From the IMG/VR virus record IMGVR_UViG_3300014204_000107, positions 171,468 through 235,467 of that record: DNA of 64,000 nucleotides, one strand, 5' to 3'. Under the pieces are notes generated by a model, which was not told where the DNA came from, ran no database searches, and saw only the letters and a list, made by a program, of their open reading frames with translations. Of this stretch, positions 22,601-64,000 are shown in pieces. The DNA is from a virus (taxonomy: Duplodnaviria > Heunggongvirae > Uroviricota > Caudoviricetes). A program made the position numbers and the translations under genes. How positions within the stretch are numbered: position 1 is the stretch's first letter; each line of letters opens with the position of its first letter.

Positions 22601-25600
22601 AGTCCCGGATTTAATAGTTCCGGCTCGCAAAATATTATTATTGGATTGGCTGCAGGATATAATAACAAAAGTAGTTATAATAATATTATAGGAGCATATG
22701 CTGGATATAACAATCTTCCATTAATTAATACTAATAATCAAGGGCACACTAATATATTTGGATATTACGCAGGTGAGAATAATATTGGGTCATATAGCAA
22801 TATAATTGGATATTATGCCGGCAGGTATAATAGTGGATCAGTTAATAATTTATTTGGAAATGCAGCAGGATATCTAAGCACTGGGTCATATGATGATATT
22901 ATTGGATATAATGCCGGATATAATAATGTTGGCAGTTATAATTTTATACAAGGATATGATGCAGGTCATAATAATATAGGTGATTATAATATTATTAATG
23001 GATACGCAGCAGGGTATGATGCTATAGGAAATCATAATATTATGATTGGGTGGGACTCGGGATATAAGAATTCTGGTTCATATAATTTAATTATTGGATA
23101 TGGTGCTGGGCTTGATATGAAAACCGGCAGTCGCAATATTATATTGGGATATATAGCAGGGCCATCTTCATCATTAATTAATATAAGTGATCAATTATTT
23201 ATTGATAATGTGAAGTCAGATTTTCCTTTAATATGGGCTAGCTTTAATAACCGAATATTAGATTTTAGTGCTTCCGCAGTAGGTATAGAAACAGGAAAAA
23301 ATCCAATATATAAATTAGATGTAAATGGTGATATTAGAATTCGTGAAAAGATAAATAATCAATCTTATAAATTATATTTTGGAAATACTGCAGCAATAAC
23401 GCCAGGTACAGATGCAGTAATATATAAATCAGCAAGCGGATTATTATATACAGATGACCAATTTGGAATAGGCATTATAAATGAGTCATCAACCGCAACT
23501 AAATTTTTAGTCGCAGATACTGCAGGAGTTATATATTATACTTCTTCTGTTGGTGGAGGAACATCAATATCAAGTTCTTATGCATCAAGCAGTACCAGTG
23601 CATCTTATGCATTGACAAGTTCATATAGTCTAAGCAGTTCATATGGCTTATCAGCAAGTTATGCATTAAGTAGTTCATATACTCTTTCAAGTAGTTATGG
23701 TTTAAGTTCAAGCTATAGTTTAAGCAGTTCATATAATTTATCGTCAAGTTATGCTTTAACTGCATCATATGGTTTAAGTTCAAGCTATTCAATATCATCT
23801 TCAAATGTATCACCAACTATTGATTTTCTAACTCTAACTGCATCATGGGCAAGCCAAAGTGTATCAAGTTCGTATACATTAACGTCATCTTATAGTTTAA
23901 GTAGTTCTTATGGATTATCAAGTTCATATACTTTAAGTTCTTCATATTCGTTGTCAAGCAGTTATAGTTTAACAAGTTCATATGCATTATCGGCAAGTTG
24001 GGCAGCCAATTTAGCATTAGAAGATAATGTGGCACCAAATCAAACGGGAACAGGTATAGTATCACATTATATTGCTGGAGAAAATATAGCAATTAGTAAT
24101 GTTTGCTATTTAAAGGATGACGGTAAATTTTATTTAACAAACGCACACACTGAAAGCGTAAGTAAAGGAATGCTTGCATTATCATTAGAAACATTATCTA
24201 CAGATCAAACGGGGAAATTTTTAGATTATGGTTATTATAGAGATGATGCATGGAATTGGGCGGTTGATGGTATATTGTATTTAGGATCGGCATCTTGGGG
24301 AAGTATGGTACAATCAGTTGATACTGGCAGTGGATGCATATTGAGAAAAGTCGGATACGCATATAGTGCTGATATAATATTATTTGAGCCAGAAAATGAT
24401 TATTTTGAATTTGGGGAATCGGTTTATACTGGCAATCCTCTTACATTAATATCAGCAAGCTATGCATTATCAGCAAGCTGGGCGCCGGGAAGCGATTCCG
24501 TATCCGCATCATATAGTATAACTTCATCATATTCATTGAGTAGTTCATATTTGCAATCTGCAAGCTATTCATTAAGTGGTTCATATAATTTATCAAGTTC
24601 TTATGCATTAAGCAGTAGTTTCGCAAATAATTCTATTTCTTCTTCATATTCCGTATCAAGCTCATATTCATTATCAGCAAGCTGGGCACCGCAGCCAGAA
24701 ATATCAGATTCGGCATCGTATGCCACTACAGCATCATATTCTTTAAGTGGAAGTTATACATTAAGTGGTTCCTATGCACAGTCTTCAAGTTATAGTTTAA
24801 CAAGTTCATTTAGTTTAAGTGGTAGTTATGGAATTTCATCAAGTTATGCATTAAGTGCATCATATACACCAAATAGTGATACCACAACGTCCGCCAGCTA
24901 CGCAAATAGTAGCTCATATGCATTGTCAGCAAGCCATACAGATAATTCAATTTCCTCTTCCTACACATTAACAGCAAGTTATGGGTTATCAAGTAGTTAT
25001 GGGTTAAGTTCTTCATATACAGTATCCTCAAGTTATGCAAATGGATCAACATCTTCTTCATATTCGTTAACAGCAAGCTATGGTTTAAGTTCATCTTACG
25101 CACAGTCAGCAAGTTATGGATTATCAAGTAGTTATAATTTAAGCAGCTCATATGGATTAAGTAGCAGTTATGCTTTGTCAGCAAGTTGGGTTTCTATACA
25201 AGATTCAGCATCTTACGCCACAACTGCATCATATAGTTTAACAAGTTCCTATGGGTTATCAAGCAGTTTTGCGTTATCGTCATCTTATGGTTTAAGTTCT
25301 TCTTACGCATTAGATAGTACGTCCGCCAGCTATGCATTATCTTCAAGTTGGGCATACCAAAGCTCACAAAGCATGGATACGTTCAATGATGTAACAACTC
25401 GAGGCAATATTACTTCAAATAATATTACAGTCAATCAGATAACAGCAAGCAACGTATATATATCTGGTAGAATAACTGCGTATGAATTATTTGTTCAATA
25501 TGAAACTGCGTCAACAATATATTCTACCGGAAGCAATACATTTGGTAGTTTGATGTCAAATAATCATAAATTTACTGGTAGTGTTTATATTACTGGTAGT

Positions 25601-27406
25601 TTATATGTAGCAGGTGGCGATATTAATATTGACGATGATAAATTATTAATTGGTACTGCAAGTTGGGCGCAGAACACTATATCAGCCAGTTATTCACATA
25701 CAAGTAGCTATAGTTTATCGGCATCATATTCTATAACAAGTTCTTATGGCTTGAGTAGTAGCTATTCTTTGACATCATCTTATGCAGCAAGCTCTACATC
25801 AGCGAGCTATACCATTAGTTCGAGCTACGGGGTGAGCAGTTCATATAGCATTAGTTCGAGTTATGCACCAAGTAGCGGGGCTACCATATCTTCGAGCTAT
25901 GCAGTATCATCAAGTTATAGTTTGTCTTCTTCCTATGGGTTGAGCTCAAGTTATGCAATAACGGCTTCATATGCAGTATCAACAAGCTATGGCCTAACAT
26001 CAAGTTATGCAAGTCAAACACTTAGCGCAAGTTATTCTACGTCTGCATCTTATAATTTAAGCAGCAGTTATGGTGTATCATCAAGTTATGCGTTAACATC
26101 GTCTTATGGCGTAATTGCTCTAAGCAGTTCATACTCCCTATCAGGCAGCTATGCGTTATCAGCATCCTATTCACCCGTCGGGACAGTAACTTCTTCCAGC
26201 TATGCTATAACAAGTTCATATGCCTTTAGTAGTAGTTATAGTTTATCAGCCAGTTATGCATTATCAAGCTCATATGGCTTAAGTAGTAGCTATGCAGGAA
26301 ATAGTAATAGTGCAAGTTATTCTATATCGACATCATATTCTTTAACATCAAGTTATTCAAATAATAGTGTATCATCGAGTTATGGATTATCAAGCAGTTA
26401 TGCATTAAGTAGTTCTTATAGTTTATCAAGCTCATATGCAAAGTCAGCCAGTTATTCTTTAAGTAGTAGCTATAGTTTGACAGCAAGCTATGCAAATATT
26501 AGTATAAGTTCTTCCTATGCAATGTCATCCAGCTACAATTTAAGTAGCTCATATGCATTGAGCTCAAGTTATGGATTATCTTCAAGCTATTCTTTAACTG
26601 CCAGTTATGCTAATAGTAGCACAAGCGCGTCATACACAGTAAGTGCTAGCTACGGTCTTTCAAGTAGTTATACTTTATCAGCCAGTTATGCTTTAACTTC
26701 TTCATATGGTTTAAGCAGTTCTTATACAGTTAGTGCAAGTTATGGATTATCTTCAAGCTATTCTCCAAGCAGTTCATATTCAAATACAAGCATTTCTGCA
26801 AGCTATGCATTGACTGCAAGCTATGCATTGACTGCAAGCTATTCAGTAAGTAGTTCTTATGGAATTAGTTCAAGCTATACTATGACTGCATCTTATGCAA
26901 CTAATTCAACATCAGCAAGCTGTGCATTGACAAGTTCTTATGCATTATCAAGCAGTTACGGAATAAGTGCTTCATATGGATTAAGCAGCTCTTATTCAAA
27001 GAGTTCATCTTATACATTGTCATCAAGTTATTCAATTACGAGTAGTTATAATTTGAGCAGTTCTTATGGTATATCATCATCATACAGTTTGAGTAGCTCA
27101 TATAGTTTGACATCAAGTTTTGCATCTACTGGTTTAAGTTCTTCCTATTCAGTATCAGCAAGTTATGCACCAAGTAGTCCATCAATTAGTGCTTCATATG
27201 CTACAACTTCATCATATACATTGAGTAGTTCTTATAATTTAAGTAGTTCATATTCTGTTTCAGCATCATATGCACCTGGATCGCCGAGTATTAGTTCCTC
27301 ATATACTACTACTGCATCTTATGCATTATCAGCATCATACGCCCCTGGGGGGGCCCCTGCAAACGGTGATGACTATTACATTCTTTTAAATAGGGTTTTT
27401 AACTAA
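16628..27406 (+). CDS. Giant Ser/Tyr hexapeptide-repeat fibre protein (~3,590 aa)
   Basis: ATG 16628 follows the terminator and a promoter-like motif; ~2,000 aa of [ST][SA]SY[ASG][LI] repeats interrupted by fibre-like domains and a NxxIGYxAG repeat region. Confidence 0.75.
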   Translation: MTQEIRKKSVDRYLREIPVLLNDTDALSQNYLIFSDIPTLLTAGKNLIRFSNNDYSLYVDTINAEVIDAAGNPVYCELKYSIDSAENNGLIIYIYSDAASGVAELTIVFSAKYDFISNPGYKIDIPQVWKQKINTKWQFQIVIDADKPNNSDILFETEPNIDAVELYVPYRRNRYEFISGSYPGAASPNDNKYIYYKTSPSTDYISSNYYDYTSKNSEFFTPNFIQYDVNSLVTRNAAKINIDVPTVKDSNNISSPNIVGYNDKYTNVLSLAGYHIPDKIPVAPDPTEFCFQSYHKGGILKIYPTGAIPQIPTGYSFVTNDDYIYTAAITDVINKSTITVNGLYQRKVRTQKGNEIIWTFTSIENSNFEVTSSRLDYYNTSSLVPNISDEYLYVAISDLKPISGEITKVKLYDNAKSGYADYSLIGEYDVLSRELLVDYKRFYADFPVGKFITSSVVTEYWSASKYDTTMTPTAERGDRYKMDAIFIHGPAFLPSYGIEDVSYYQQLSTGKWILQPIVSGSTADPFNIYFSENTYYALTFGASAVAIASAPKPKLDIYFSGSAFTPTSNGQYPYDGKLIGSINSSTTTLDYNSITYYFMPDRSGFGNLKFIIGGGMFFLNNISVKSVHELGFTPISTYFTMLVRNPVTSSYHNFKFEFLNSSGKTAEQVVELKNVILMSHSLVFQGSVASDSASYALTSSYALSASWAPISGIAESASYATTASYVLSSSYGLSSSYSLSASYASSSTSASYSLTSSYGLSSSYAQTSSYSLTSSYSLSSSYGISSTSASYSISSSYSLSSSYARSSSYSLSSSYAQSASNVSPIINFLTLTASWAVWAVNSLTASCVSASVVVLSSSYASSSTSASYALTASYSLSSSYGLSSSYAFTSSYSLSSSYANSASYSLSSSYNLSSSYSLSASWIAVQASASYSTTASYALSSSYNLSSSYALSSSYGISSSYGLSSSYTLTASYASSSTSASYAITSSYSLSSSYSDSSSYTLSSSYGLSSSYTLSSSYASSSTFADTSSISISSSYSLSSSYANLSLTASYSVTSSYAVSASYGLSSSYSLSSSYNLSSSYAKSASYSLSSSYNLSSSYALTASWAPDSGVAISASYASSSTSASYAISSSYGLSASYAITSSYSLSSSYGVSSSYAQTSSYSLSSSYALSSSYSLSSSYGLSSSYSLTSSYTLNSTSASYALTSSYGLSSSYTISSSYALSASYGQSAGYAISSSYASSSTSASYGISSSYNLSSSYTLSSSYGISSSYGLSASYSLTSSYALATLSSSYAESASYSLTASYASNSISASYALSSSYSLTASYAGTSLSASYALTSLSASYALTSSYSLSSSYGLSSSYSLSSSYGLSSSYGLSSSYADSASYSLTSSYSLSSSYGISASYAQSSSYNLSSSYTLSSSYTLSSSCAESASYTLTSSYGMSASYGLSASYSLSSSYTLSSSYGISSSYGLSSSYALSASWVSIQDSASYATTASYSLSSSYTLTASYADSASYSLSSSYALSSSYSLSSSYGLSSSYALSSSYGLSSSYALSSSYALDSTSASYALSSSWAYQSSQSMDTFNDVTTRGNTTSNNITVNQITASNAYISGRITAYELFVQYETASTIYSTGSNTFGSLLTNTHTFTGSVYITGSLYVAGSDITIDADRLLIGTASWAQNTISSSYALSSSYTLTSSYTISSSYGSSSSYALSSSYNLSSSYTLSASYGLSSSYSISASYAVTSSYGLSSSYANSASYSLTSSYSNSSISASYALTASWIDIQSSASYATTSSYSLSSSYSLSSSYGLSSSYSLSSSYAESASYSLSSSYSNSSSYGLSSSYALSSSYNLSSSYSITASWARNIYNTDDVFIANRTATMNDKWLKFNGSSTYLIVTNSGYVGIGVNNPNNLLQVKDLINFDSDNWNTYIGHYASGSGLNNSVLGYSAGRYSTGDSHVFIGFNAGMYANEVYNTLIGYQAGYKNSGSYNIAIGDSPGFNSSGSQNIIIGLAAGYNNKSSYNNIIGAYAGYNNLPLINTNNQGHTNIFGYYAGENNIGSYSNIIGYYAGRYNSGSVNNLFGNAAGYLSTGSYDDIIGYNAGYNNVGSYNFIQGYDAGHNNIGDYNIINGYAAGYDAIGNHNIMIGWDSGYKNSGSYNLIIGYGAGLDMKTGSRNIILGYIAGPSSSLINISDQLFIDNVKSDFPLIWASFNNRILDFSASAVGIETGKNPIYKLDVNGDIRIREKINNQSYKLYFGNTAAITPGTDAVIYKSASGLLYTDDQFGIGIINESSTATKFLVADTAGVIYYTSSVGGGTSISSSYASSSTSASYALTSSYSLSSSYGLSASYALSSSYTLSSSYGLSSSYSLSSSYNLSSSYALTASYGLSSSYSISSSNVSPTIDFLTLTASWASQSVSSSYTLTSSYSLSSSYGLSSSYTLSSSYSLSSSYSLTSSYALSASWAANLALEDNVAPNQTGTGIVSHYIAGENIAISNVCYLKDDGKFYLTNAHTESVSKGMLALSLETLSTDQTGKFLDYGYYRDDAWNWAVDGILYLGSASWGSMVQSVDTGSGCILRKVGYAYSADIILFEPENDYFEFGESVYTGNPLTLISASYALSASWAPGSDSVSASYSITSSYSLSSSYLQSASYSLSGSYNLSSSYALSSSFANNSISSSYSVSSSYSLSASWAPQPEISDSASYATTASYSLSGSYTLSGSYAQSSSYSLTSSFSLSGSYGISSSYALSASYTPNSDTTTSASYANSSSYALSASHTDNSISSSYTLTASYGLSSSYGLSSSYTVSSSYANGSTSSSYSLTASYGLSSSYAQSASYGLSSSYNLSSSYGLSSSYALSASWVSIQDSASYATTASYSLTSSYGLSSSFALSSSYGLSSSYALDSTSASYALSSSWAYQSSQSMDTFNDVTTRGNITSNNITVNQITASNVYISGRITAYELFVQYETASTIYSTGSNTFGSLMSNNHKFTGSVYITGSLYVAGGDINIDDDKLLIGTASWAQNTISASYSHTSSYSLSASYSITSSYGLSSSYSLTSSYAASSTSASYTISSSYGVSSSYSISSSYAPSSGATISSSYAVSSSYSLSSSYGLSSSYAITASYAVSTSYGLTSSYASQTLSASYSTSASYNLSSSYGVSSSYALTSSYGVIALSSSYSLSGSYALSASYSPVGTVTSSSYAITSSYAFSSSYSLSASYALSSSYGLSSSYAGNSNSASYSISTSYSLTSSYSNNSVSSSYGLSSSYALSSSYSLSSSYAKSASYSLSSSYSLTASYANISISSSYAMSSSYNLSSSYALSSSYGLSSSYSLTASYANSSTSASYTVSASYGLSSSYTLSASYALTSSYGLSSSYTVSASYGLSSSYSPSSSYSNTSISASYALTASYALTASYSVSSSYGISSSYTMTASYATNSTSASCALTSSYALSSSYGISASYGLSSSYSKSSSYTLSSSYSITSSYNLSSSYGISSSYSLSSSYSLTSSFASTGLSSSYSVSASYAPSSPSISASYATTSSYTLSSSYNLSSSYSVSASYAPGSPSISSSYTTTASYALSASYAPGGAPANGDDYYILLNRVFN
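21041..21670 (+). repeat. Internal duplication, copy 1
   Basis: Near-identical to ~25163-25680 (SASWVSIQDSASY... and SQSMDTFNDVTTRGN...LLIGTASWAQNT). Confidence 0.85.
25163..25680 (+). repeat. Internal duplication, copy 2
   Basis: First ~78 nt identical to 21041-21118; downstream domain near-identical to 21300-21670. Confidence 0.85.
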
Positions 27407-37644: not shown

Positions 37645-37939
37645 ATGAAGTTAAAAGAATTAAAACAATTAATAAAAGAAGAGATATCCATTGTATTAAA
37701 AGAATACGGCGAAGATTCAGGTGGTCAAGATATGACATGGGGGTATTTATAATAGACCAGCGGAACATAAAGATAGTGGAAATACTGATTTTATTGAAAA
37801 AGGCAAGGAAGATTATGATGATGGTGTTCCTTTTGATGCATGTCCATATGCATCCGGCGTTAATAAATGGTATAATATTGATTTAGCTGAATATTGGAAG
37901 CGTGGGTGGCAATTGGCTAAAAAAGAAAGTGAAGAATAA
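37645..37939 (+). pseudogene. Leader-bearing RMF/CrpP-like protein with a +1 frameshift (not in ORF track)
   Basis: AAGGAG RBS; MKLKELKQLIKEEISIVLKE...; stop at 37752 unless one G is removed from G5 (37739-37743), giving ...KGKEDYDDGVPFDACPY...YWKRGWQLA. Confidence 0.65.
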
Positions 37940-41558: not shown

Positions 41559-44500
41559 ATGGAAGAAGAAAAACAAAGTGCATTTTTCGATGGTTTAAAT
41601 AAGATGATGTCATCTGCAGTCATGATTCGGGGCACTACCGATAAGAAACTGCGAGTGATAGACTTAAATAAAGTTCAAGTCCAATCGAATTTGGAAACTA
41701 ATAGGTTAATAGACCGTTTTGCACGCGTTATTATGCCAATTAGAACATATGGTTATGACTATTCATATGCATTCCAAGGGTCCAGAATTGAAATATACAG
41801 GGACTATGAACAAATGGATATGTACCCCATATTGTCCAGTGCTCTTGATATTTATGCTGATGAATGTATAGGATCCGCAACAATTGTGCCAATGGTGGAT
41901 GGCAGAAAAATAACAATCAAAGAATTATATGATAATAATGAAAAGAATTTTTTAATATATGGCATTGATGCAAATAGTAAAAAAATTAAAATAATTGAAG
42001 CAAGTCATATTGCATATAATGGAAAAAAACAAGTATATAAAATTACGCTTGATGATAGCACAGAAATTAAATGTACTGCTAATCATGAGTGGGTTCGATT
42101 TGATAATGAATTAATAAGAACAGATAAATTAGCAGAAGGTGATTGGCTTTGCGCATTACCACAAGAATATCAAATAATTAAAATAGAAAAATTAGAAGGA
42201 TTATCTGATGTATATGATATAGTAAATGCAGGAGACAATCATATATTTGCAATTGAAACTAATGACGGTGGTAAATTATTTACACATAATTGCACTCTAA
42301 AGAACTTATATGGCAGGATTGTGGAAATAAAAACTGACAAAGACTACATAGCCGACTCTCTTAATAATTTATTTTACGATGTTTTAAATATTGACTTTAA
42401 CCTTTGGGCATGGGTGCGAAATCTCGTAAAGTACGGCGATTTTTGGTTAAAAATGGATATCACAGAAAAGCTTGGTATTACTAATGTAATTCCATTATCT
42501 CCATATGGTGTGCAAAGGGTAGAAAACCCAAACAACCCAGAAATGACTGAATTCCATTATGATGCGGCACTTGGCAATTATATGTACGGACAATCATTAC
42601 AGAAATTTAAGAATTATGAAATAGTGCACTTTAGATTGCTTTCCGATATGAACTATTTGCCATATGGGCGGAGCATTTTTGAATCAGCAAGGCAATTATG
42701 GAAGCAAATTGTATTATTACAAGATGCAATGCTTATTCATAAGTTAATGCGTGCGCCAGAACGCCGCGTTATTAAAGTAGATATAGGTAATATACCACCA
42801 GCTGAAGTTGATAACTACATGAATTCAGTTATTAATAAAATGAAGAAAGTTCCATATTTGGATGAAAAGACTGGGCAATATAATTTACGTTTTAATTTAA
42901 TGCCTGTAGCATATTATACGAATATTCCATTATTAGATGGTAGAACTATAACAATCAAACAATTAGCAGAGGAAACGAAGAAAGGCAAGAAAAATTATGT
43001 TTATTCTATAGATAGGGAAAATGATAATAAAATTGTATCTGGAGAGGTTCAGAGATGCGAATTAACTAAAAAAGATGCGGATATTGTTCGTATTTGGTTG
43101 GATGATGATAGTTATATAGATTTTGAATTAGAACATCCAGTAATGTTACGAACTGGTGAATATAAAGCAGCAAAAGATTTAATTGAAAATGATAGTTTAA
43201 TGCCATTTTATAGTAAATTTTCAAATGAAAAAGGCATTAAAGATTATGAAATGATTTTTGACCCAGCAGACCAAATATTTAAATATACTCATAGGGTGAT
43301 TGCTGAGCAATATAATATTGATAATTATATTGAAAATAATCATGTTGTTCATCATGCGGATTTTAATAGAAAAAATAATATTCCAGAAAATTTAGATTGT
43401 AAGATGACATTTGATGATCATATTAAATATCATCGAGATAATATTAAACTTTGGTTAAATACATTAACACCACAACAATGGGAAATCATTAATAAGAAAC
43501 GCAGTGATACTTGGAAAAAGAATAGAATTCTTGGTAAAAATAAATTATGGAACGAGGGAGAAACAAAAGAAACAAATGAATTAGTAAGATTATTAGGTGA
43601 AAATATATCAAAAACATTCACCCCAGAAAAAAAGAAGAAATATGCAGCTAGATTAAGAGGGAAACTAAATCCGGTACACTCAAAATGGATACAAGAAAAT
43701 TTTGTTCCATATGAAAGAACTGAAGAGCATAAGCAAGTATTAAGAGAAAAAATGTCTGGTGATAATAATCCAAATTATGGTAAGACGTGGGAAGAAATAC
43801 ATGGTAAAGAAAAAGCGGAAGAATTAAGAGAAAAAGTAAGTAATGTATCCCGTGATAAATTTTTAAAAAATAATCCAATGAAAACAGATGCTCAGAAAAA
43901 ACGGGCATCCAAAGTTATGAAGTTTGAAAATGGTAAACGGTGGTCAGATAATAATTTTAAAGAAAAAGTAACTATTGCAATGAGTCATACATATGATTCA
44001 TGGTTGATTGAGCAAATTAAAAAACAAATAAAATTATGTAATTTAAAAAATCTTAATGAAATTGTTAATCATTTAAATAAATGTAATGATATTGTTTCTT
44101 ATTTTGCAATTTTGAATGAAACAAAAAAAGGAACTGGTAAATTTTCAAGACATTCTATTGCAAAATTTGCAATCCGATTGGGCTATAAAAATATTGCAGA
44201 ATTAATTTTAGATGTAAAAAATAATTATATTATCAATCATAAAGTCAAGAAGGTAGAATTTTTAACTGAAAAAATTGATGTATATTGTATGTTGGTCAAA
44301 GATTATCATAATTTTGCAATTGATAGCCACGGTGGAAATATTCGTGATGGTATTTTTGTAAAAAATACTATGCTTGAAGATTTTTATTTACCAGTTAGAC
44401 CAGGGCAAGTAAATTCATCTATAGATACATTGCAGGGTTTAGTAATGGATTTCACGCCAGATTTAGAGTTCTTATTAAGCCAAATGTTTGCAGCAATAAA

Positions 44501-45359
44501 GATACCCAAAGCATTCCTGGGTTATGAAGAAGGCCTGAGTGCTAAGAATGTTTTATTAACGCAGGATGTAAGGTTTGCTCGCACAATAGAACGCGTTCAA
44601 CGTATTGTAGAATCTGAACTGTATAAAATAGCAATAATACATTTATATTCGCAAGGATATACTGGCGATGATTTAGTTAATTATAAGATTCAATTAACGC
44701 CATCTTCAATATTATATGAAGAAGAAAGAAATACATTATTAACTAATAAAGTTGATTTAGTTGGCAGAATTCGCGAGCAGAACTTATTACCTGATAAATA
44801 CATATATGAAGAATTATTTAATTTCAGTGAGCAGGAATGGCATCAGATGCGCAAGGATATGATTGAAGATTTAAAATGGCAATATAGAATAAAACAAATT
44901 TCTGACGAAGGTGTTGACCCATATGAGGAAGCAAATAAGATTAAAAACTTATTAACAAAGCAAGAAGGTGCTGGTGAGTTTGATTTAGCAAAAGGTGAAG
45001 AACAAGGCGGTGGTGCAGGGGAAGACATATTTGGTGGTAGCTCATTTGGCGGATTAGGTGGTGGCACTGAAACTGAAGGTGGAACGGAAGATATATTTGG
45101 TGCAGGAGAAGTAGGTGGGGCAGAAGGAACGCCCCCAACAGAAGGTGGACCAGAAAATATTACCGCTGGATATAAGAGTGGTAAAAATTTATTATATTCT
45201 CCAAATAATATAATAAGATTAAAATTAACAAACTATATTAAACAGCGGGGCAATACTAAATCATCAAAGTATATATTGTCTGAAGTACTCAACCAATTAG
45301 AGCATGAGCAGGAAGATATTTTTAACTCTGGCTATTTTGACGAAAAAAACTTAGAATAA
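41559..45359 (+). CDS. gp20: Portal protein (T4 gp20-like) with two inteins
   Basis: ALDIYADE, KYGDF, PYGRS, RAPERR..KVDIGNIPP, MLEDFYLP, AIKIPKAFLG; ~636 aa after splicing. Confidence 0.93.
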   Translation: MEEEKQSAFFDGLNKMMSSAVMIRGTTDKKLRVIDLNKVQVQSNLETNRLIDRFARVIMPIRTYGYDYSYAFQGSRIEIYRDYEQMDMYPILSSALDIYADECIGSATIVPMVDGRKITIKELYDNNEKNFLIYGIDANSKKIKIIEASHIAYNGKKQVYKITLDDSTEIKCTANHEWVRFDNELIRTDKLAEGDWLCALPQEYQIIKIEKLEGLSDVYDIVNAGDNHIFAIETNDGGKLFTHNCTLKNLYGRIVEIKTDKDYIADSLNNLFYDVLNIDFNLWAWVRNLVKYGDFWLKMDITEKLGITNVIPLSPYGVQRVENPNNPEMTEFHYDAALGNYMYGQSLQKFKNYEIVHFRLLSDMNYLPYGRSIFESARQLWKQIVLLQDAMLIHKLMRAPERRVIKVDIGNIPPAEVDNYMNSVINKMKKVPYLDEKTGQYNLRFNLMPVAYYTNIPLLDGRTITIKQLAEETKKGKKNYVYSIDRENDNKIVSGEVQRCELTKKDADIVRIWLDDDSYIDFELEHPVMLRTGEYKAAKDLIENDSLMPFYSKFSNEKGIKDYEMIFDPADQIFKYTHRVIAEQYNIDNYIENNHVVHHADFNRKNNIPENLDCKMTFDDHIKYHRDNIKLWLNTLTPQQWEIINKKRSDTWKKNRILGKNKLWNEGETKETNELVRLLGENISKTFTPEKKKKYAARLRGKLNPVHSKWIQENFVPYERTEEHKQVLREKMSGDNNPNYGKTWEEIHGKEKAEELREKVSNVSRDKFLKNNPMKTDAQKKRASKVMKFENGKRWSDNNFKEKVTIAMSHTYDSWLIEQIKKQIKLCNLKNLNEIVNHLNKCNDIVSYFAILNETKKGTGKFSRHSIAKFAIRLGYKNIAELILDVKNNYIINHKVKKVEFLTEKIDVYCMLVKDYHNFAIDSHGGNIRDGIFVKNTMLEDFYLPVRPGQVNSSIDTLQGLVMDFTPDLEFLLSQMFAAIKIPKAFLGYEEGLSAKNVLLTQDVRFARTIERVQRIVESELYKIAIIHLYSQGYTGDDLVNYKIQLTPSSILYEEERNTLLTNKVDLVGRIREQNLLPDKYIYEELFNFSEQEWHQMRKDMIEDLKWQYRIKQISDEGVDPYEEANKIKNLLTKQEGAGEFDLAKGEEQGGGAGEDIFGGSSFGGLGGGTETEGGTEDIFGAGEVGGAEGTPPTEGGPENITAGYKSGKNLLYSPNNIIRLKLTNYIKQRGNTKSSKYILSEVLNQLEHEQEDIFNSGYFDEKNLE
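41865..42290 (+). mobile_element. Mini-intein (142 aa) in portal
   Basis: C1 (CIGSAT), block B CTANH, block F VYDI, ends THN before Cys. Confidence 0.9.
42903..44366 (+). mobile_element. Non-canonical intein (488 aa) with HNH endonuclease in portal
   Basis: Starts PVAYYTNIPLLDG; HH.DFNRKNN.PENL HNH motif; NUMOD3-like repeats; block F VYC; ends VKN before Thr. Confidence 0.85.
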
Positions 45360-47164: not shown

Positions 47165-48877
47165 ATGATTAAACAATCAATAGGGTATTCAGCAATACCA
47201 TTTATAGTAACACCACAACAGTTACAAGAGTCAATGCGTAAGAACAATGGCATTGTTATTGTATCCGGTGTTATACAGCGTGCTGATTCATTAAACCAAA
47301 ATAAGCGCAAATATCCTAAACAAATATTATTGCGTGAAGTAGAAAGGTATAATAGTGATTTTATTAAACAAGGCAATGCCCTAGGTGAGCTTGATCACCC
47401 GGACTGCGTTCTTCCTGATACCAAGATACTTACAAAAGATGGTTGGAAATATATTAAAGATATATCAGAAGACGAAATAGTTGCAACACTGAATACCGTT
47501 ACTAACGAATTAGAATATCAACAAATAGTGCGAAAAATAGAACAGCATTATGCTGGTGAAATGATTGAATTTAAAAATGCAGTTTTTAGTGCATGTGTGA
47601 CGCCAAATCATAAATTTTATGTTATGCGAGGGGTCGACCGGCAGCGTGGTGAGTTTATTGCAGCAAATGAATTATATAAAACTGACGTAATTAATAAAAA
47701 ATGCAAATGGCAGGGTACTGACCAATTAGTTATGACATTTCCAGCAACTGGTATTAAAGAATCTTATTCTGTTGATACGGAGGCATTTTGTAATTTTTTG
47801 GGTTGGTATATAGCAGAAGGATATATTAGTCAATATAAAGGTAATATGGTGTATATTAGTCAATCTAAAAAAGAAGGCAAAGAACAAATAATTGCAATGT
47901 TAGATCAAATGCCATATCACTGGAATTATTATGTTGGTAAAAATGATGAGTGGGTATTTTATATTATTGATAAGGCATTATATGAATATTTAAAACCATT
48001 GGGTGGCAGTTATGATAAACATATACCGCAAGAAATCAAAAATCTTTCACCCAAATATTTAAAAATATTATTACGTTCATTAATGTTAGGAGATGGTACT
48101 ACAAATGGAAATGATTATTATACTGTTTCTCCTCAATTGGCCAGTGATGTTAGTGAGATAATTATTAAATGCGGATTATCAGCATCTATTACTGAGATTG
48201 ATAGAATTGATAATTATTATGTTATTAAAAATAAAGAAACTGGTGAAATTGAAACAATTAATAATATTTATTGGTACACCAAACCAAAATATGCAATTAA
48301 AGAAAATTTTGAAATTGTTGATAAAATAAAAAAGAAAAACGGAAAGATAATGTATATAATAAGAACCAAAGATTCTTCACATTATTTTTTTAATGAAATG
48401 GATAAAACCATTATTGATTATGATGGTATGGTATATTGTGTAGAAGTCCCAAACCATACTATATATTTAATGCGCGATGGTAAACAATTTTGGTCTGGCA
48501 ATTCAAGTATCGTTGAATTAAAAAATGCTTCACACCGCATATTAGAAGTATGGTGGAGTGGTGATGATTTATTAGGTAAGATAGAAATATTGCATGATGT
48601 AACACCGGCAGGGCACATATTATATAAATTATTTGAACGTGGCATTAAAGTAGGTATATCATCAAGGGGATTAGGTTCAGTAAAGCCTATTAATGAAGAC
48701 GGGGCAGTGGAAGTACAAGATGACTTTGAATTAGTTGCTTGGGACTTTGTTTCCAATCCATCTACCCAAGGTGCATATATGACAATGTTGCATGAAGGCA
48801 TTGACCCAGCAAATATGAACTTACATAAATTTATGAAAATGGAATCTATTATAAACTCAATATTAAGAGGTGAATAA
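47165..48877 (+). CDS. gp21: Prohead protease (T4 gp21-like) with intein
   Basis: NQNKRKYP, ALGELDHP, ASH, VGISSRGLGS, DFVSNPS; ~204 aa after splicing. Confidence 0.93.
   Translation: MIKQSIGYSAIPFIVTPQQLQESMRKNNGIVIVSGVIQRADSLNQNKRKYPKQILLREVERYNSDFIKQGNALGELDHPDCVLPDTKILTKDGWKYIKDISEDEIVATLNTVTNELEYQQIVRKIEQHYAGEMIEFKNAVFSACVTPNHKFYVMRGVDRQRGEFIAANELYKTDVINKKCKWQGTDQLVMTFPATGIKESYSVDTEAFCNFLGWYIAEGYISQYKGNMVYISQSKKEGKEQIIAMLDQMPYHWNYYVGKNDEWVFYIIDKALYEYLKPLGGSYDKHIPQEIKNLSPKYLKILLRSLMLGDGTTNGNDYYTVSPQLASDVSEIIIKCGLSASITEIDRIDNYYVIKNKETGEIETINNIYWYTKPKYAIKENFEIVDKIKKKNGKIMYIIRTKDSSHYFFNEMDKTIIDYDGMVYCVEVPNHTIYLMRDGKQFWSGNSSIVELKNASHRILEVWWSGDDLLGKIEILHDVTPAGHILYKLFERGIKVGISSRGLGSVKPINEDGAVEVQDDFELVAWDFVSNPSTQGAYMTMLHEGIDPANMNLHKFMKMESIINSILRGE
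47405..48502 (+). mobile_element. LAGLIDADG intein (366 aa) in prohead protease
   Basis: C1 (CVLPDT), VTPNH, LGWYIAEG and LMLGDG motifs, VYCVEV, ends WSGN before Ser. Confidence 0.92.
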
Positions 48878-53042: not shown

Positions 53043-54737
53043 ATGGCTGAAAATTTAATGAACGTTTTCGCAAATGACGCAAAGGCAGCCTATCGTAATC
53101 AACATGAACAATCCAAGAAACTCATTAAGAAATGGGAACGCACTGGTTTGTTAGAAGGTATCAAACATGAATACGATAGATCGACTATGGCAGTCTTGCT
53201 TGAAAACCAAGCTCGCCAGTTAGTGACAGAAGTATCACGTACTGGTACTGCACAATACTCAGAAGAATGGAGTGGCGTAGCCCTTCCATTAGTTCGACGT
53301 GTATTTGCAGAAATCGCTGCAAAAGAATTCGTTTCTGTGCAGGCAATGACACTTCCAAGTGGACTTGTATTCTACTTAGACTTCAAGTATGGTAGCGGCG
53401 TAAGTGGGTTTACTACATCAGAAGGTACCAGCGACCAATGGGGCTGGCAAGAAAATTCTGTATATGGTAAAACTTCAGTAGCAGGTGAACCTTCAGGTGG
53501 TCTTTATGGTGCAGGCAAATTTGGATATTCTATTAACCAATTTACTACTCATTCTGCAATTGTATCAACCGGCTCAGCAGCTTGGTCAGATGTAAACTAC
53601 GATCCTACATTGTCAGCATCAATTGGACAATATAAGAAAGTTGTTATTGATATGGCAACTGCAAACATGGACCCGGAAGGCGTTCGTGCTTTTGCATTGA
53701 TCGATGGTGCCGGTACTGCTATGAACTTACCTACATATACTGCACCAGTATATGCAAGCAGCGCATGGTCACGAATCCAAATGATTGTAACTAATTCAAT
53801 TGAAATGGCTCCGTCAACTAATACGGCATCCATTGAATATAACAAACAACCAGGCGCATATAGCCGTGGTGATTTTGAAGCAACCGGTGACCCTTCATGG
53901 GGTAACGGAACAGGTGTGGAACAATATGATCCATCAGCTGGTAGTGTTGGTACTAATGCACTTCAAATTCCTGAATTAAATGTATCCTTACGTTCAGTTC
54001 CTATTGTTGCTAAAACAAGAAAATTGAAAACCGTATGGACACCAGAATTTGCTCAGGACTTAAATGCATATCACTCAATTGATGCTGAAGCCGAATTAAC
54101 TTCATTGTTAAGTGAGTATATGACCTTAGAAATTGACTTGGAAATCCTTGACATGCTTATCGAAAATGCTATTACAGTAGATTACTGGAATGCACAACCA
54201 GGTAAGATAATTGGAGCTACTCAAACTAATGGAGAATCAGATTGGCAAGCACAAGGTTTTGGCAGCACTTCAATGTTCTACACTCAACCAACATGGTTCC
54301 AAACTTTAGGCATTAAATTGCAGAAAGTTTCTAATTTAATCCACAAGAAAACCTTACGCGGTGGTGCAAACTTTATCGTATTAGGTCCTACTGTAGCAAC
54401 TATTATCGAATCGATCCCTGGCTTCGCTGGAGATACTGACGGTAATCAGGTGAAATTTGAAGCTGGTATCCAACGTATTGGTAGTCTTTCAAAGAGATAT
54501 ACGGTTTACAAAAACCCATATATGAAAGAAGATACAATCCTTATGGGATTCCGCGGTACTCAGTTCTTAGAAACTGGTGCTGTTTTCGCTCCATATATTC
54601 CATTGATTATGACGCCATTGATCTACGATCCAGTGAACTTTACACCTAGAAAAGGCGTAATGACGCGTTATGCAAAGAAAGTCGTTCGCCCCGAATTTTA
54701 TGGTAAAATTTTTGTAGGTGGAACAAACTATATTTAA
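53043..54737 (+). CDS. gp23: Major capsid protein (T4 gp23-like)
   Basis: LLENQ, PLVRR, VSVQAM..PSGLVF, AKTRKLK, EFAQDLNAYH.IDAEAEL, APYIPL, DPVNFTPRKGVMTRY. Confidence 0.96.
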   Translation: MAENLMNVFANDAKAAYRNQHEQSKKLIKKWERTGLLEGIKHEYDRSTMAVLLENQARQLVTEVSRTGTAQYSEEWSGVALPLVRRVFAEIAAKEFVSVQAMTLPSGLVFYLDFKYGSGVSGFTTSEGTSDQWGWQENSVYGKTSVAGEPSGGLYGAGKFGYSINQFTTHSAIVSTGSAAWSDVNYDPTLSASIGQYKKVVIDMATANMDPEGVRAFALIDGAGTAMNLPTYTAPVYASSAWSRIQMIVTNSIEMAPSTNTASIEYNKQPGAYSRGDFEATGDPSWGNGTGVEQYDPSAGSVGTNALQIPELNVSLRSVPIVAKTRKLKTVWTPEFAQDLNAYHSIDAEAELTSLLSEYMTLEIDLEILDMLIENAITVDYWNAQPGKIIGATQTNGESDWQAQGFGSTSMFYTQPTWFQTLGIKLQKVSNLIHKKTLRGGANFIVLGPTVATIIESIPGFAGDTDGNQVKFEAGIQRIGSLSKRYTVYKNPYMKEDTILMGFRGTQFLETGAVFAPYIPLIMTPLIYDPVNFTPRKGVMTRYAKKVVRPEFYGKIFVGGTNYI

Positions 54738-54869: not shown

Positions 54870-56438
54870 ATGAAAAGCAAAAAAACAGTAATATGTGTGA
54901 TATGTAATAATGAATATAATGCTAGAGGGTTTCATAATCATATAACCCAGCATCATCATATGTCATTGGATGAATATAAAAAATTAGATTATAATCATCC
55001 GTTTAAAGATGGTCACGAACCAGCGTATCATCGAAAAAAAGAAAAAAGAAAATGTTTAATATGCGGAGCAATATTGGAATCCGAATCATTGTTATCTTAT
55101 CATATTAGACTATTGCATCACATGGACAAATTAAGTTATATTATTAAATATGAATTAAATGGAATAATCCCAGTATGTAAATGTGGGTGTGGTAAAAATG
55201 TTAAAATTTTAAAGCAACCACCGTATAAGCGTGATTATATCATTGGGCACAATGATAATCCGATGATTGGGCGAAAGCATACAAAAAAATCAAAGAATAT
55301 GATGAGTAAGAGCGCAAAAAATCGAATCAATCAAGATAAAACTAATGGAATTATTACTTCTTGGCATTCACCAACTGCTATAAAGAAACGAAGTATGGCA
55401 TATTCAGCATATTGGTTATCAAAAAAATTAGATATGTATAATGTAACGTTACTGTGCAGCCACCAAGATTATATTGATAATAAGATTAAATTTAAATGCA
55501 ATGTGTGTGGTAGGATCCAAGAACAAAATCATAAATCATATTTATTATGCGATAAATGTTATCCAAGAGTTAGATCTGCAGCCCAAACAGAAGTTGCAGA
55601 ATTTATTGAATCATTAGGAATTAATGTAGTATTGAATACCAAAAGTGTAATTAAAAATAAAGAATTGGATATATATTTGCCTGATTATAAATTAGCTATA
55701 GAATATGATGGTTTATATTGGCATAGTTTAATTGCCGATAATAAATATCATATAAATAAATCTAAGGAATGCGAGCAAATTGGAATTCAATTAATTCATA
55801 TTTTTGAGGATGAGTGGATTTTTAAGCAAGAAATAGTAAAATCAAGATTATTGCATATTGTTAATAAAACACATAATAAAATATATGCAAGAAAGTGTAA
55901 AATTGTAAAGTTAACCAAAAAAGAAAAAGATGAATTTTTAGAATTAAATCATATACAAGGAAAAGATATATCCTCTATTTATTATGGATTAATGTACGAT
56001 GATAGTATTGTTTCATTGATGACATTTTCTAAGCCAAGAATAATATCAAAAACAAAAGAATTAATTAATACATTTGAATTAGTAAGATATGCTAGCCATA
56101 TGAATTATAATATTGTTGGCGGGGCAAGTAAGTTACTAAATAAATTTATTATCGAGAACAAGCCCAGTAAAATAATATCTTATGCCGATAGAAGATGGAC
56201 AACCACGATCAAAGAAACGGTGTACGATAAATTAGGATTTATTAAAGTTAAAGAAACCGTACCAGATTATTGGTACATTAAATCCCAGCGCCGACTGCAT
56301 AGATTTAATTTTGCTAAACATCGATTAGTTAAAATGGGTTATGACAAAAATAAAACGGAATCACAAATTATGAAAGAAATTGGATATGGAAAAATATATG
56401 ATTGCGGCAGTTTAAAATATGAAATGAAATTTGATTAG
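54870..56438 (+). CDS. Hef-like homing endonuclease
   Basis: Two C2H2 fingers, CKCGCG, NUMOD3-like GRKHT, ELDIY..LAIEYDGLYWH..IFEDEW, C-terminal IYARKC...SYADRRW...IYDCG. Confidence 0.82.
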   Translation: MKSKKTVICVICNNEYNARGFHNHITQHHHMSLDEYKKLDYNHPFKDGHEPAYHRKKEKRKCLICGAILESESLLSYHIRLLHHMDKLSYIIKYELNGIIPVCKCGCGKNVKILKQPPYKRDYIIGHNDNPMIGRKHTKKSKNMMSKSAKNRINQDKTNGIITSWHSPTAIKKRSMAYSAYWLSKKLDMYNVTLLCSHQDYIDNKIKFKCNVCGRIQEQNHKSYLLCDKCYPRVRSAAQTEVAEFIESLGINVVLNTKSVIKNKELDIYLPDYKLAIEYDGLYWHSLIADNKYHINKSKECEQIGIQLIHIFEDEWIFKQEIVKSRLLHIVNKTHNKIYARKCKIVKLTKKEKDEFLELNHIQGKDISSIYYGLMYDDSIVSLMTFSKPRIISKTKELINTFELVRYASHMNYNIVGGASKLLNKFIIENKPSKIISYADRRWTTTIKETVYDKLGFIKVKETVPDYWYIKSQRRLHRFNFAKHRLVKMGYDKNKTESQIMKEIGYGKIYDCGSLKYEMKFD

Positions 56439-60429: not shown

Positions 60430-61653
60430 ATGGCATATGCACAATATGAACAAATAGATATATGGAAAGATAGTCCGCAAGTAATAACTGCTACTAATGG
60501 ATTAACTCCGTGGGGTTATTACGATGATGACAGTGCATTTCAAATAGATGCATATAATTTTTCCAAATTTGCTGCTAGGTGGCTCGGATATCCTATTATT
60601 GATATTGAATTGCAAGATATAAATTTTTATACTGCATTTGAAGACGCAGTAAATGAATATGCCAACCAAGTTAACCAATTTAATATTAAAAGTTATTTAT
60701 TTTCATTGCAAGGATTGCCAACTGCGTCAATACAAGATGGCAATTTAACGCATAAACATATTGCTTCCAATTTAACAAATACAATGTTGATATCTAGCCA
60801 ATATGGTACAGAAGTTGGATTGGGCCCAAATGCTAAATGGTATGCGGGTGAAATTAATATAGTTATGGGTGAACAAGATTATGACTTGACTCCCATTATG
60901 GAAGCAGCGGGTGGTGAAGGATTTACATATGAAGTTCGTAGAGTATTCCATGAAGCACCACCAGCAATTGTTCGTTATTTTGACCCGTATGTTGGTACTG
61001 CATTAGCAAATGCAAATTTAATGGAATCATTTGGTTGGGGTGGTATGTCCCCTGCTATTAACTTTATGATGATGCCACTATATGGTGATATATTAAGAAT
61101 TCAAGCAATTGAAATGAATGACCAAGTTAGAAAATCTGCATATTCATTTGATATTAAAAATAATGTTTTAAAAGTATTTCCCGTTCCAAGTCGCGATTAT
61201 ACTACATATTTTCAATTTGTAAAAGTTGAAGAAAAGATGAATCCGTTCATGCTTGGCAGGAAAGAATTTAATAGCTATTATGGCAAAAACATGCCGACGG
61301 GCAATGGATTAATAGCTGACTTTTCAAATATACCGTATATGGCAATGTCATATGGTCAAATAAATTATCCAGGTAAACAATGGATTAGGCAGTATGCGTT
61401 AGGCAGTTCTAAAGAAATGTTAGGTATGGTTCGTTCTAAATACGCACAAATACCGGGGCCTAATGAAAATGTTACATTAGATGGTGATACACAGAGAAGT
61501 GAAGGTGCAGCAATGAAAGCAGACTTAATTACAAAATTAAGAGAAATGCTTGAAGCAACAACACAAACAGAGCAATTAAAACGCGAGCAAGAAAAAGCTA
61601 CCGCAATGGTAGAAATACTAAATAAAATTCCACTCCCGATTATAGTGGCATAA
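60430..61653 (+). CDS. gp13: Neck protein (T4 gp13-like head-tail adaptor)
   Basis: LGYPIIDIEL, WIRQYAL...KEMLG.VRSKY..IP.....LDG and C-terminal PLPI motifs. Confidence 0.82.
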   Translation: MAYAQYEQIDIWKDSPQVITATNGLTPWGYYDDDSAFQIDAYNFSKFAARWLGYPIIDIELQDINFYTAFEDAVNEYANQVNQFNIKSYLFSLQGLPTASIQDGNLTHKHIASNLTNTMLISSQYGTEVGLGPNAKWYAGEINIVMGEQDYDLTPIMEAAGGEGFTYEVRRVFHEAPPAIVRYFDPYVGTALANANLMESFGWGGMSPAINFMMMPLYGDILRIQAIEMNDQVRKSAYSFDIKNNVLKVFPVPSRDYTTYFQFVKVEEKMNPFMLGRKEFNSYYGKNMPTGNGLIADFSNIPYMAMSYGQINYPGKQWIRQYALGSSKEMLGMVRSKYAQIPGPNENVTLDGDTQRSEGAAMKADLITKLREMLEATTQTEQLKREQEKATAMVEILNKIPLPIIVA

Positions 61654-61668
61654 AACGCAGGAGGCACC

Positions 61669-62235
61669 ATGGATAAGTTGCAAGAATATGAACAAAAAAA
61701 AGACCAATTAGAAGATAAATTTGAACTTTTATCTAAAGAATATAATGCATTAAGGCACGCGGATGATTATAGGGGATTTGGCTGGGAATTTGATGTCAAA
61801 CTCCATAATGTAGTAATGCCGCATGATTTAAGGGAATTATTTAAATTATATCCAGATTTAGAAAATGAATCAATAGATATATTTGAAGATTTTATTGCAA
61901 TTAAAGCAGATGATTTAGTATCAGATTTACAGAGAACATTTAATTGGATTGGTGAAGGATTTCAAGTAGGTAGAGGTAGCGGATGGCTTGTATTAATTGA
62001 TAGAGATTATGAAAATTATGAATATAATATGAGCGAAATTGTGAATAACATATATTATAATGACTTTGAAGAAGCAGATAACGCGTTTTTAGATTGCTAT
62101 TCATATGTTAACGATAGAGCAGCCGAACTTAAAACCATTAAATCATATATTCACGAATATATTGGCAATCTTGGTGACTGGTTTTATGGTTATCTTAAAG
62201 AAAAAGGCATAATAAAAGATTATACAGGAGAATAA
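61669..62235 (+). CDS. Acidic hypothetical protein
   Basis: GGAGG RBS; 188 aa; GRGSGWL motif. Confidence 0.62.
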   Translation: MDKLQEYEQKKDQLEDKFELLSKEYNALRHADDYRGFGWEFDVKLHNVVMPHDLRELFKLYPDLENESIDIFEDFIAIKADDLVSDLQRTFNWIGEGFQVGRGSGWLVLIDRDYENYEYNMSEIVNNIYYNDFEEADNAFLDCYSYVNDRAAELKTIKSYIHEYIGNLGDWFYGYLKEKGIIKDYTGE

Positions 62236-62536
62236 TATGAAATTGGCTGAATTGAAACAATTGATTAAAGAATGCATTAATGAAGAAATAATTGCAGAGG
62301 GGGCAAGAATTAGATGGCGAAATTTACGAGTTGGTGATTATTTAATATGCATTAAAAATAAATTTGATGCTAAATTAGAGGTAGGGAAAAAATATAAAAT
62401 TATAAGTGTGTCTGAAAAAATGCATAGAATTTCAATTGAAATAGATGATAATCATATACCACACGGAATCACTGTTCCATCACCATATTTAACTCAATTT
62501 AGATTAATAAAAGATTATATAGGAGAATAATATGAA
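62210..62536 (+). repeat. 32-nt direct repeats flanking a leader cassette
   Basis: taataaaagattata(c/t)aggagaataatatgaa at 62210-62241 and 62505-62536, 31/32 identical. Confidence 0.85.
62237..62530 (+). CDS. Small leader-bearing protein (SH3-like cargo)
   Basis: MKLAELKQLIKECINEEIIAE; VGDYLICIK....LEVGKKYKI. Confidence 0.72.
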   Translation: MKLAELKQLIKECINEEIIAEGARIRWRNLRVGDYLICIKNKFDAKLEVGKKYKIISVSEKMHRISIEIDDNHIPHGITVPSPYLTQFRLIKDYIGE

Positions 62537-62786
62537 CAAATTAGAATTAAAACAATTAATTAAAGAAGAAGTTAGAATTGCATTGCAAGAAGATTCAAAC
62601 GAAGAAAGATTGGCAAAATTGAAGCAATCTGACCCAAAAATATTTCAAATAATAGACGCAGTAAGGGCAGCCGATAAAATACCAGAATCAGAAATTGATT
62701 ATATTGGTGAGCGTGATTATATAGCATATAATGCCGTGCTAAATATTGTTAGGGTTAAAAGAATTGAAACGCCATATGACGATTAA
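62532..62786 (+). CDS. Small protein with KQLIKEE leader
   Basis: MNKLELKQLIKEEVRIALQE. Confidence 0.75.
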   Translation: MNKLELKQLIKEEVRIALQEDSNEERLAKLKQSDPKIFQIIDAVRAADKIPESEIDYIGERDYIAYNAVLNIVRVKRIETPYDD

Positions 62787-62811: not shown

Positions 62812-63312
62812 ATGCCCTTATTTGGCGGTAAAAGAGATATAAGTTTATTTAGATTCATTAACAGGGAGTTAATTAATAAGATAGTTGACACGGCAGTTGA
62901 TGTATATAAGATAAGTTTATCTTCAACCAAGGCAAATTTATATGGAGAATCAACTAATAAAATTTATAAAGTAGCATTACGTTTACATTGTTTAGTACAT
63001 GACTTAAGAGAGCAAGAAATGAGCTATGAGGAATATGGCGTCACTGTAAACCAAAACGTTAATTTTACATTCTTAAGAGATGAATTAATGGATAAACAAT
63101 TAGTAATGGAGGCAGGAGATATAATTCAATGGAATGAAAAATATTGGGAAGTAGATACAGTAGTTGAAAATAAATTGTTTATAGGCAAAAATCCAGATAC
63201 AAATAAAGATTATGATGGCACGCATGGTTGGGATGTGGGTATAACGTGCAATACACATATGACAAGAAGAACAAAACTTAATATTGAACGTGCCAGAGCA
63301 GGCAATAATTAG
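62812..63312 (+). CDS. gp14: Neck/head-closure protein (T4 gp14-like)
   Basis: NLYGE, GDII.W...YWEV motifs; downstream of gp13. Confidence 0.7.
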   Translation: MPLFGGKRDISLFRFINRELINKIVDTAVDVYKISLSSTKANLYGESTNKIYKVALRLHCLVHDLREQEMSYEEYGVTVNQNVNFTFLRDELMDKQLVMEAGDIIQWNEKYWEVDTVVENKLFIGKNPDTNKDYDGTHGWDVGITCNTHMTRRTKLNIERARAGNN

Positions 63313-63321
63313 GAGTATAAT

Positions 63322-64000
63322 ATGAAATTAAAAGAATTAAGGCAATTAATAAGAGAATCTATTCAAGAAGTATTACTTGAAAGCTACGGTGACGGACTTA
63401 AACAGTTTGAAACAGATAATTATCATTTTAATAATCGAAATTCTTTTGATATTGCTGTTAAAAATATCAATAAATATTATAAAGATATAGATGTTGGTCA
63501 TTTTGATATGATTATTTCCCTTCCAAAAGGCAGTAAAATAGTTGATAAATTTGGTGTATCTGCTGATAGTTATAAACTAATTGATGAGGTGGTTCAAGAA
63601 ATATTGATGGCATCTCCTATGGAAAGCAAGCATTTTTATGATTCTCACCGAGATATCATATTACAAGATATAGAGCAATGGGCAAGTGAAAGCATGACAC
63701 TAACAGATGTAGCATTGGAGTTAGGATGGGACGAAGAGTCCGCAGCAAATAATTCTGATAGTACATTATATGGTGATTATGCAATACATATTGCAGGTAA
63801 TTACGATAAATATATTGGTAATCTAGAAGAGATTGAAGGAATGATAGATTTAAGAAATGATGTTAATGAAGAAGTATATAAAACAGGCGTAGATTCATCC
63901 AAATTTACTACTGCCGAAATAAAAGTAAAAATTAAACAGTTAGAAGATGATATAGAAGCATCAAAGAAAAGAAATGGGTCGGATGAATTCGTTCAAAGCA
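63322..64000 (+). CDS. Leader-bearing protein, 3'-truncated by the window edge (not in ORF track)
   Basis: AGGAG RBS; MKLKELRQLIRESIQEVLLESYG...; frame appears open to the window end. Confidence 0.72.
   Translation, partial: MKLKELRQLIRESIQEVLLESYGDGLKQFETDNYHFNNRNSFDIAVKNINKYYKDIDVGHFDMIISLPKGSKIVDKFGVSADSYKLIDEVVQEILMASPMESKHFYDSHRDIILQDIEQWASESMTLTDVALELGWDEESAANNSDSTLYGDYAIHIAGNYDKYIGNLEEIEGMIDLRNDVNEEVYKTGVDSSKFTTAEIKVKIKQLEDDIEASKKRNGSDEFVQS

Follow-up and report, generated by a model that had tools for sequence, protein, structure and literature searches.

Proteins that phages inject from the capsid are front-line tools of counter-defence, and in T4 they vary fast. The T4 internal proteins have only an N-terminal packaging leader in common and are encoded in a variable hotspot (PMC9026906, PMC3012670, PMC12373910). 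At the T-even internal-protein loci, the elements flanking the genes are promoter and stem-loop motifs rather than coding leader (PMC2839356). More generally, ORFans of T4-type phages are shuffled, and mini-circles formed, through short conserved elements that lie beside them (Arbiol et al. 2010, PMC2839356); recombination in these phages is reported to operate on patches of <50 bp (PMC2839356). Cassette shuffling is hence no novelty in T4-type phages; what is new in the locus described here is (i) a recurring element that is translated, (ii) a very large family of tagged genes, and (iii) a probable scar made up of coding tail and Shine-Dalgarno (SD) sequence.

The locus lies in a window of 64,000 nucleotides, bases 171468–235467 of a 299,351-bp IMG/VR virus record that is rated complete and has terminal repeats. 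The window has 32% GC and carries all of its genes on the + strand, which is the strand of every window feature given below. It is T4-like, of the gp23/gp21 type: the window encodes a gp23-type major capsid protein (53043–54737; Pfam Gp23, 2.8e-70), a prohead protease of the T4 gp21 / Peptidase_S77 type (47165–48877; Peptidase_S77, 5.2e-24), and also a T4-type portal and large terminase subunit. The closest cultured relatives of the capsid protein are those of Microcystis phage Mel-JY01 and Flavobacterium phage immuto, both at ~52% identity.

Several other features of these genes were recorded. In the 570-aa protease, ~365 inserted residues interrupt the S77 domain after GELDHPD; the insert has a C at its start, LAGLIDADG and weak intein-splicing matches, and is probably an intein. 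The 1,266-aa portal protein (41559–45359) gives intein-splicing matches (1.4e-23) in two stretches plus an HNH endonuclease domain, a pattern pointing to one or two probable inteins. A 522-aa zinc-finger protein (54870–56438), encoded between the genes for the capsid and the neck, matches REase_MTES_1575 weakly, at a score under the Pfam cutoff, and is possibly a nuclease of the homing type; in contigs L001 and L010, ORFs whose N-termini look similarly rich in Cys and His lie upstream of gp13. Finally, an ORF of 3,592 residues (16628–27406) contains several long internal direct repeats, at offsets of 1872, 4014 and 4122 nt.

Genome-wide, ~27–29 ORFs start with a leader of ~20 residues, M-x-K-x-ELKQLIKEE, followed by bodies that are unrelated to each other. 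Judged by sequence, nearly all leaders have an (L/I/V)-x-E motif ending at residue 12, and a second (L/I/V)-x-E is found at residues 19–21 in about 15 of the 27 listed. Because the same genome encodes both an S77 protease and a capsid protein of the gp23 type, and by analogy with the T4 internal proteins, the leader is likely a capsid-targeting propeptide, with the gp21-type protease as the enzyme presumed to take it off. The likeness to T4 is twofold. Firstly, IPI, IPII, IPIII and Alt are also unrelated proteins with a short N-terminal propeptide alone in common, with the gp21 motif at its end. Secondly, the T-even loci likewise place tagged genes in variable hotspots of a gp23/gp21-type phage. 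The differences are that the present leader has its own sequence and is ~20 residues long (10–19 in T4), that the tagged genes number ~27–29 rather than a handful, and that they are scattered as insertions among head, neck and tail genes instead of being gathered at T4's two loci. With roughly one gene in 10–15 carrying the same tag, wedged among structural genes, the arrangement suggests a general route to diversifying injected cargo, and the tag itself suggests a way to spot cargo genes in metagenomic phages. Exact MNKxELKQLIKEE leaders also head tandem ORFs in two viral contigs with another gene context (L046:983–2863 and L047:1–756), and so the tag is not restricted to the phage in the window; no clear copy of the leader was found in Flavobacterium phage immuto.

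The junction of interest sits between the genes for a gp13-like neck / head-completion protein (60430–61653) and a gp14-like protein (62812–63312; named from its position). These two conserved genes are ≤40 nt apart in 89 of 94 related loci, where the insert is absent; in the window phage they flank 1,158 nt containing three genes. The first, A188 (61669–62235), is an ORFan without a leader. The second, B97 (62237–62530), has 97 codons: an MKL-type leader (MKLAELKQLIKECINEE...), encoded by the first 20 codons (62237–62296), and a 77-residue ORFan body. The third, C84 (62532–62786), joins an MNK-type leader (MNKLELKQLIKEEVRIALQE, followed by D) to another ORFan body. None of the three has a homologue beyond itself among 5.8 billion proteins. 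When the B97 body served as query in a full HMMER search, only weak repeat-domain matches came back, and one of the weakly matched proteins has a marginal Phage_ProQ_C_like hit.

Other junctions in the neighbourhood are similarly occupied. Two leader genes, E435 (63322–64000, continuing beyond the window end; leader MKLKELRQLIRESIQEVLLE) and F107, part the gp14-like gene from the gp15-like gene, and another four separate the sheath gene from the tube gene. At its outer borders the gp13–gp14 insert has no leader, and leader homology therefore did not seed this insert. In a distant lineage, the same junction carries an independent insert (L173:1127–1960 and L187:966–1802), the first ORF of which is headed by a leader (MMIKLKDLLSE...); L187 has another leader-like ORF directly after its gp14-like gene.

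B97 is bracketed by a direct repeat of 32 nt, which the original prediction had described and the bases confirm. Copy 1 (62210–62241) consists of the last eight codons of A188 (IIKDYTGE), the TAA stop and the first ATGAA of B97; copy 2 (62505–62536) consists of the last eight codons of B97 (LIKDYIGE), the TAA stop and the ATGAA of C84. The copies are identical at 31 of 32 positions. The sole mismatch, C at 62225 against T at 62520, exchanges Thr for Ile, so that both copies encode I-K-D-Y-(T/I)-G-E. An AGGAG Shine-Dalgarno sequence is embedded in the G-E codons of each (62226–62230 and 62521–62525), the stops fall at 62233–62235 and 62528–62530, and the next ATG follows after a single nucleotide (at 62237 and 62532), giving a B97-to-C84 start spacing of 295 nt. 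The similarity between A188 and B97 is confined to this shared tail; i.e., two otherwise unrelated proteins do end in the same peptide, as had been predicted. Identity between the two regions, taken rightward in 30-nt steps, runs 8/30, 8/30 and 9/30 before the block, 31/32 within it, 21/30 in the leader and then 11/30, from which it follows that the block edges are abrupt. On the right, the duplicated unit stops at ATGAA, exactly where the MKL and MNK leader subtypes part.

Such near-identity is rare in this genome. Pairs of 32-mers with ≤1 mismatch fall on only 36 diagonals in the 299 kb, nearly all of them in repetitive genes, and the A188/B97/C84 junction pair is one of three that are linked to leaders. 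A genome of 32% GC with biased codon use does raise the odds of a fortuitous match between AT-rich sequences, but the upstream 16 nt of the block (positions −27 to −12 relative to the start codon) match at 15/16 in the B97/C84 pair only. Among the other 350 of the 351 leader-gene pairs the maximum is 11/16, and the mode is 4–5. An assembly artefact fares no better, since the same arrangement occurs in two further assemblies made from other data: 62208–62651 is matched with zero differences by a 444-nt contig of another study (groundwater run X2), and a separate 2,581-bp JGI contig encodes the same gp13-A188-B97-C84-gp14 array (known from its proteins). Chance and artefact are accordingly rejected, with virtually no probability left to either.

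The two halves of the block behave differently. Several other leader-gene pairs also match at 15/16 over the SD-spacer-ATGAA half (−11 to +5), the likeness of which is for this reason read as functional. The upstream half is common to none of the other leader genes, which indicates that the repeat records one event and is not a general homology arm. Between the copies, the tail block (ATA AAA GAT TAT) does not differ at a single third-codon position while leaders vary at theirs, and the tail is on that account a recent copy. The tail of A188 may have been copied to the end of B97, or the reverse. The block, in short, is a genuine junction duplication, recent relative to the age of the leader family.

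Could selection alone have made the two junctions alike? The block might be a translation-coupling or regulatory element, or the shared C-terminal peptide might be functional. Its layout—an SD sequence inside the G-E codons, with a stop 1 nt ahead of the ATG—is what coupled translation could produce, and the recurrence of the 15/16 match over SD-spacer-ATGAA in several other pairs is in keeping with this. Two partial copies of the peptide point the same way. One is an exact 18-nt copy of the copy 2 tail (TTAATAAAAGATTATATA) that lies outside the window (G000:C1:277474–277491), in frame (LLIKDYI) and close to the end of a small, membrane-like ORF, for which a codon-level estimate puts chance at ~1e-3. 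The other is an internal IDYIGE in C84 (62697–62714), resembling the KDYIGE of the duplicated tail, with codons that differ at synonymous positions only; it may be chance or an older trace. Against selection stands the absence of the upstream 16 nt from all of the other 25 leader genes, together with the identity of the block at synonymous positions, where leaders held alike at the peptide level vary freely. Regulatory signals are also lacking. No RNA structure is found at the block (folding z-scores of 0.3–0.4), no terminator is present there and none above shuffled sequence, and promoter-like sites are not enriched (19 versus 24.6 in shuffled sequence). Repeat copy 2 gives a weak 9/12 promoter hit only, with no strong sigma-70-like promoter in the repeat. 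On the coding strand, the T4 late-promoter word TATAAATA shows no enrichment (37 versus 66). A purely functional origin of the likeness is, in our view, improbable.

The original prediction had placed the homology arm in the RBS plus leader DNA, and had noted an imperfect similarity that continues through the leader. Any pair of leaders would show such similarity, given a conserved peptide and AT-rich codon bias. Codons of the ELKQLIKE core agree between leaders at a rate of 0.66, where genome codon usage predicts 0.59; when 22 codons are scored in all 325 leader pairs, the number of identical codons is only 1.09-fold above expectation. No single pair is significant once the 325 tests are taken into account (lowest p=6e-4), and the B97 and C84 leaders share 6/8 of their same-residue codons against 4.7 expected (p=0.28). 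Leader DNA is at synonymous saturation: the leaders are old and held alike at the peptide level. Since a conserved peptide and codon bias suffice to account for their likeness, it is the junction that was recently duplicated and not the leader.

Through the same codon bias, many leader pairs nevertheless offer exact runs of 10–30 nt, and leader-leader crossovers do occur in relatives (see below). It is conceivable on these grounds that an unequal crossover between the B97 and C84 leaders in sister genomes first gave B97-B97-C84, and that A188 then replaced all but the last eight codons of the first B97. This account requires two events plus a second, illegitimate joint; it also sits poorly with an identity that stops at ATGAA, with the lack of a visible hybrid leader, and with an A188 that holds no further trace of B97. 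We give it little credence.

The repeat is probably, though by no means certainly, the scar of a short-homology exchange or template switch during the phage's recombination-dependent replication, made without a site-specific recombinase. Under this proposal, (i) the first joint would have formed at the SD, ATG and first bases common to all leader genes, (ii) the second joint would have kept the reading frame and formed in the adjacent ORF's 3' end, and (iii) the exchange would have set B97 between A188 and C84, duplicating the junction. The repeat would now permit precise loss of B97—as a 295-bp deletion or circle—with both neighbours unharmed. The gene content agrees with the predicted dispensability of an integrase: tyrosine recombinase PF00589 has no match in the complete genome (control genomes all match), no integrase, resolvase or serine recombinase was found, and a RecA/UvsX-like gene is present.

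The same RecA/UvsX-like recombinase would equally serve a short-patch gene conversion, in which two old and unrelated junctions were brought together by a tract that started from SD/ATG/leader homology and overwrote 27 nt, with no insertion involved. A short, abrupt-edged block beside partial homology is what such a tract might leave, and the two sites are merely 295 nt apart. However, there is no homology on the left in which the tract could be resolved (8–9/30 upstream), the tract must replace eight codons in frame in an unrelated protein, and the pattern is missing from the other tandem leader junctions. Gene conversion therefore appears unlikely, and we continue to favour the exchange or template switch described above.

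How this proposed exchange relates to described systems can be seen from the block itself. Like the shuffling guided by PeSL elements (PMC2839356; Comeau et al. 2014, PMC4122927), it involves short direct repeats around ORFan cassettes in plastic regions, general phage recombination without an integrase, and a predicted precise deletion and small circle. It differs in that the repeat consists of a coding tail, an SD and a start codon with neither promoter nor stem-loop terminator, in that the B97 junction repeat occurs once and belongs to no dispersed family, and in that the recombining element in relatives is the protein-coding leader itself. As in integron cassette arrays, small, promoterless, unrelated genes stand in tandem, each bounded by a recurring short element; unlike integron cassettes, they come with no integrase, the recurring element is translated, and there is no attC-like inverted repeat (none was found at or near the block). 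With no promoter, terminator, stem-loop or inverted repeat, the block is consequently neither PeSL-like nor attC-like. Another parallel is the 'linker' of Botstein and Campbell (per PMC2839356), a short conserved module border that guides homologous exchange into viable contexts, except that in this phage every cargo gene has its linker in its own 5' coding end, with a presumed protein function.

Variation at the locus was sought in several ways. A search of metagenome contigs for the junction pattern gave no match, and a gp13-based search of viral and metagenome contigs yielded no relative above 47% identity beyond strain-level ones. The close relatives of the locus are strain-level only, and in them the array is identical. 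The joint 62241-to-62537, expected of a 295-bp deletion, is absent from the contigs of two runs, as is any circle junction, contigs being prone to drop rare variants. Raised depth at 62010–62676 was considered as a sign of circle amplification and rejected: depths had been summed over contigs, and other leader-bearing contigs map there.

Breakpoints inside leaders are found in relatives at other loci. Contig L079 carries three tandem leader cassettes; in L062 the middle one is missing. The last leader in L062 begins with the 5' part of that missing cassette's leader (ATG CTT AAA CTA AAA GAT TTA TTA, present in L107 and L117 too) and continues with the 3' part of the next cassette's leader (AAA GAA TGG..., as in L079, L107, L087 and L121). 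Relative to L079, L062 thus has a 394-nt deletion with its junction in TTATTA, within the leader. In L125, a third, unrelated cargo follows the same leader start, and the difference between L006 and L017 amounts to precisely one unit from leader to leader. Taken together, the L062 deletion, the L125 cargo swap and the L006/L017 unit demonstrate that leader-internal crossovers occur in the clade. A shared tail, DDEIxAWGKFN, before the leader in L087 and L121 was examined as a second junction scar and rejected, the likeness being full-length paralogy.

The predicted role of RBS plus leader as a homology arm stands, then, in part: leader-internal breakpoints exist in relatives, but the near-identical tract at B97 is ORF tail plus SD plus ATGAA, not leader. 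The expectation of such breakpoints in related genomes likewise holds at other loci in other lineages; at the gp13–gp14 locus, no gain/loss polymorphism is visible among the strain-level relatives. Leader-guided shuffling exists in the clade; the B97 scar itself is not a leader-leader crossover. The leader-internal breakpoints are the more useful result, the repeat itself being modest.

Crossovers within the tag provide a concrete, testable mechanism of cassette turnover without a dedicated recombinase, and the 32-nt repeat provides a single, defined substrate for measuring how often deletions and circles form. A more tentative, and on present evidence doubtful, extension is that leader DNA is a capsid-loading tag and a recombination site at once, making up an integrase-free cassette platform among co-infecting T4-like phages. 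If so, capsid-delivered cargo genes would be gained, lost and swapped by crossovers in the translated leader, possibly via small circles, and the 32-nt B97 junction duplicate would be a fresh product of that leader-based cassette traffic. Within the genome, hybrid-looking leaders occur at 37645–37752 and at G000:C1:242212–242982, joining MKLK to KEEISIVLKE and MNKM to RECINEE; judged from their sequences, these subtype hybrids fit past leader-internal crossovers, or point mutation.
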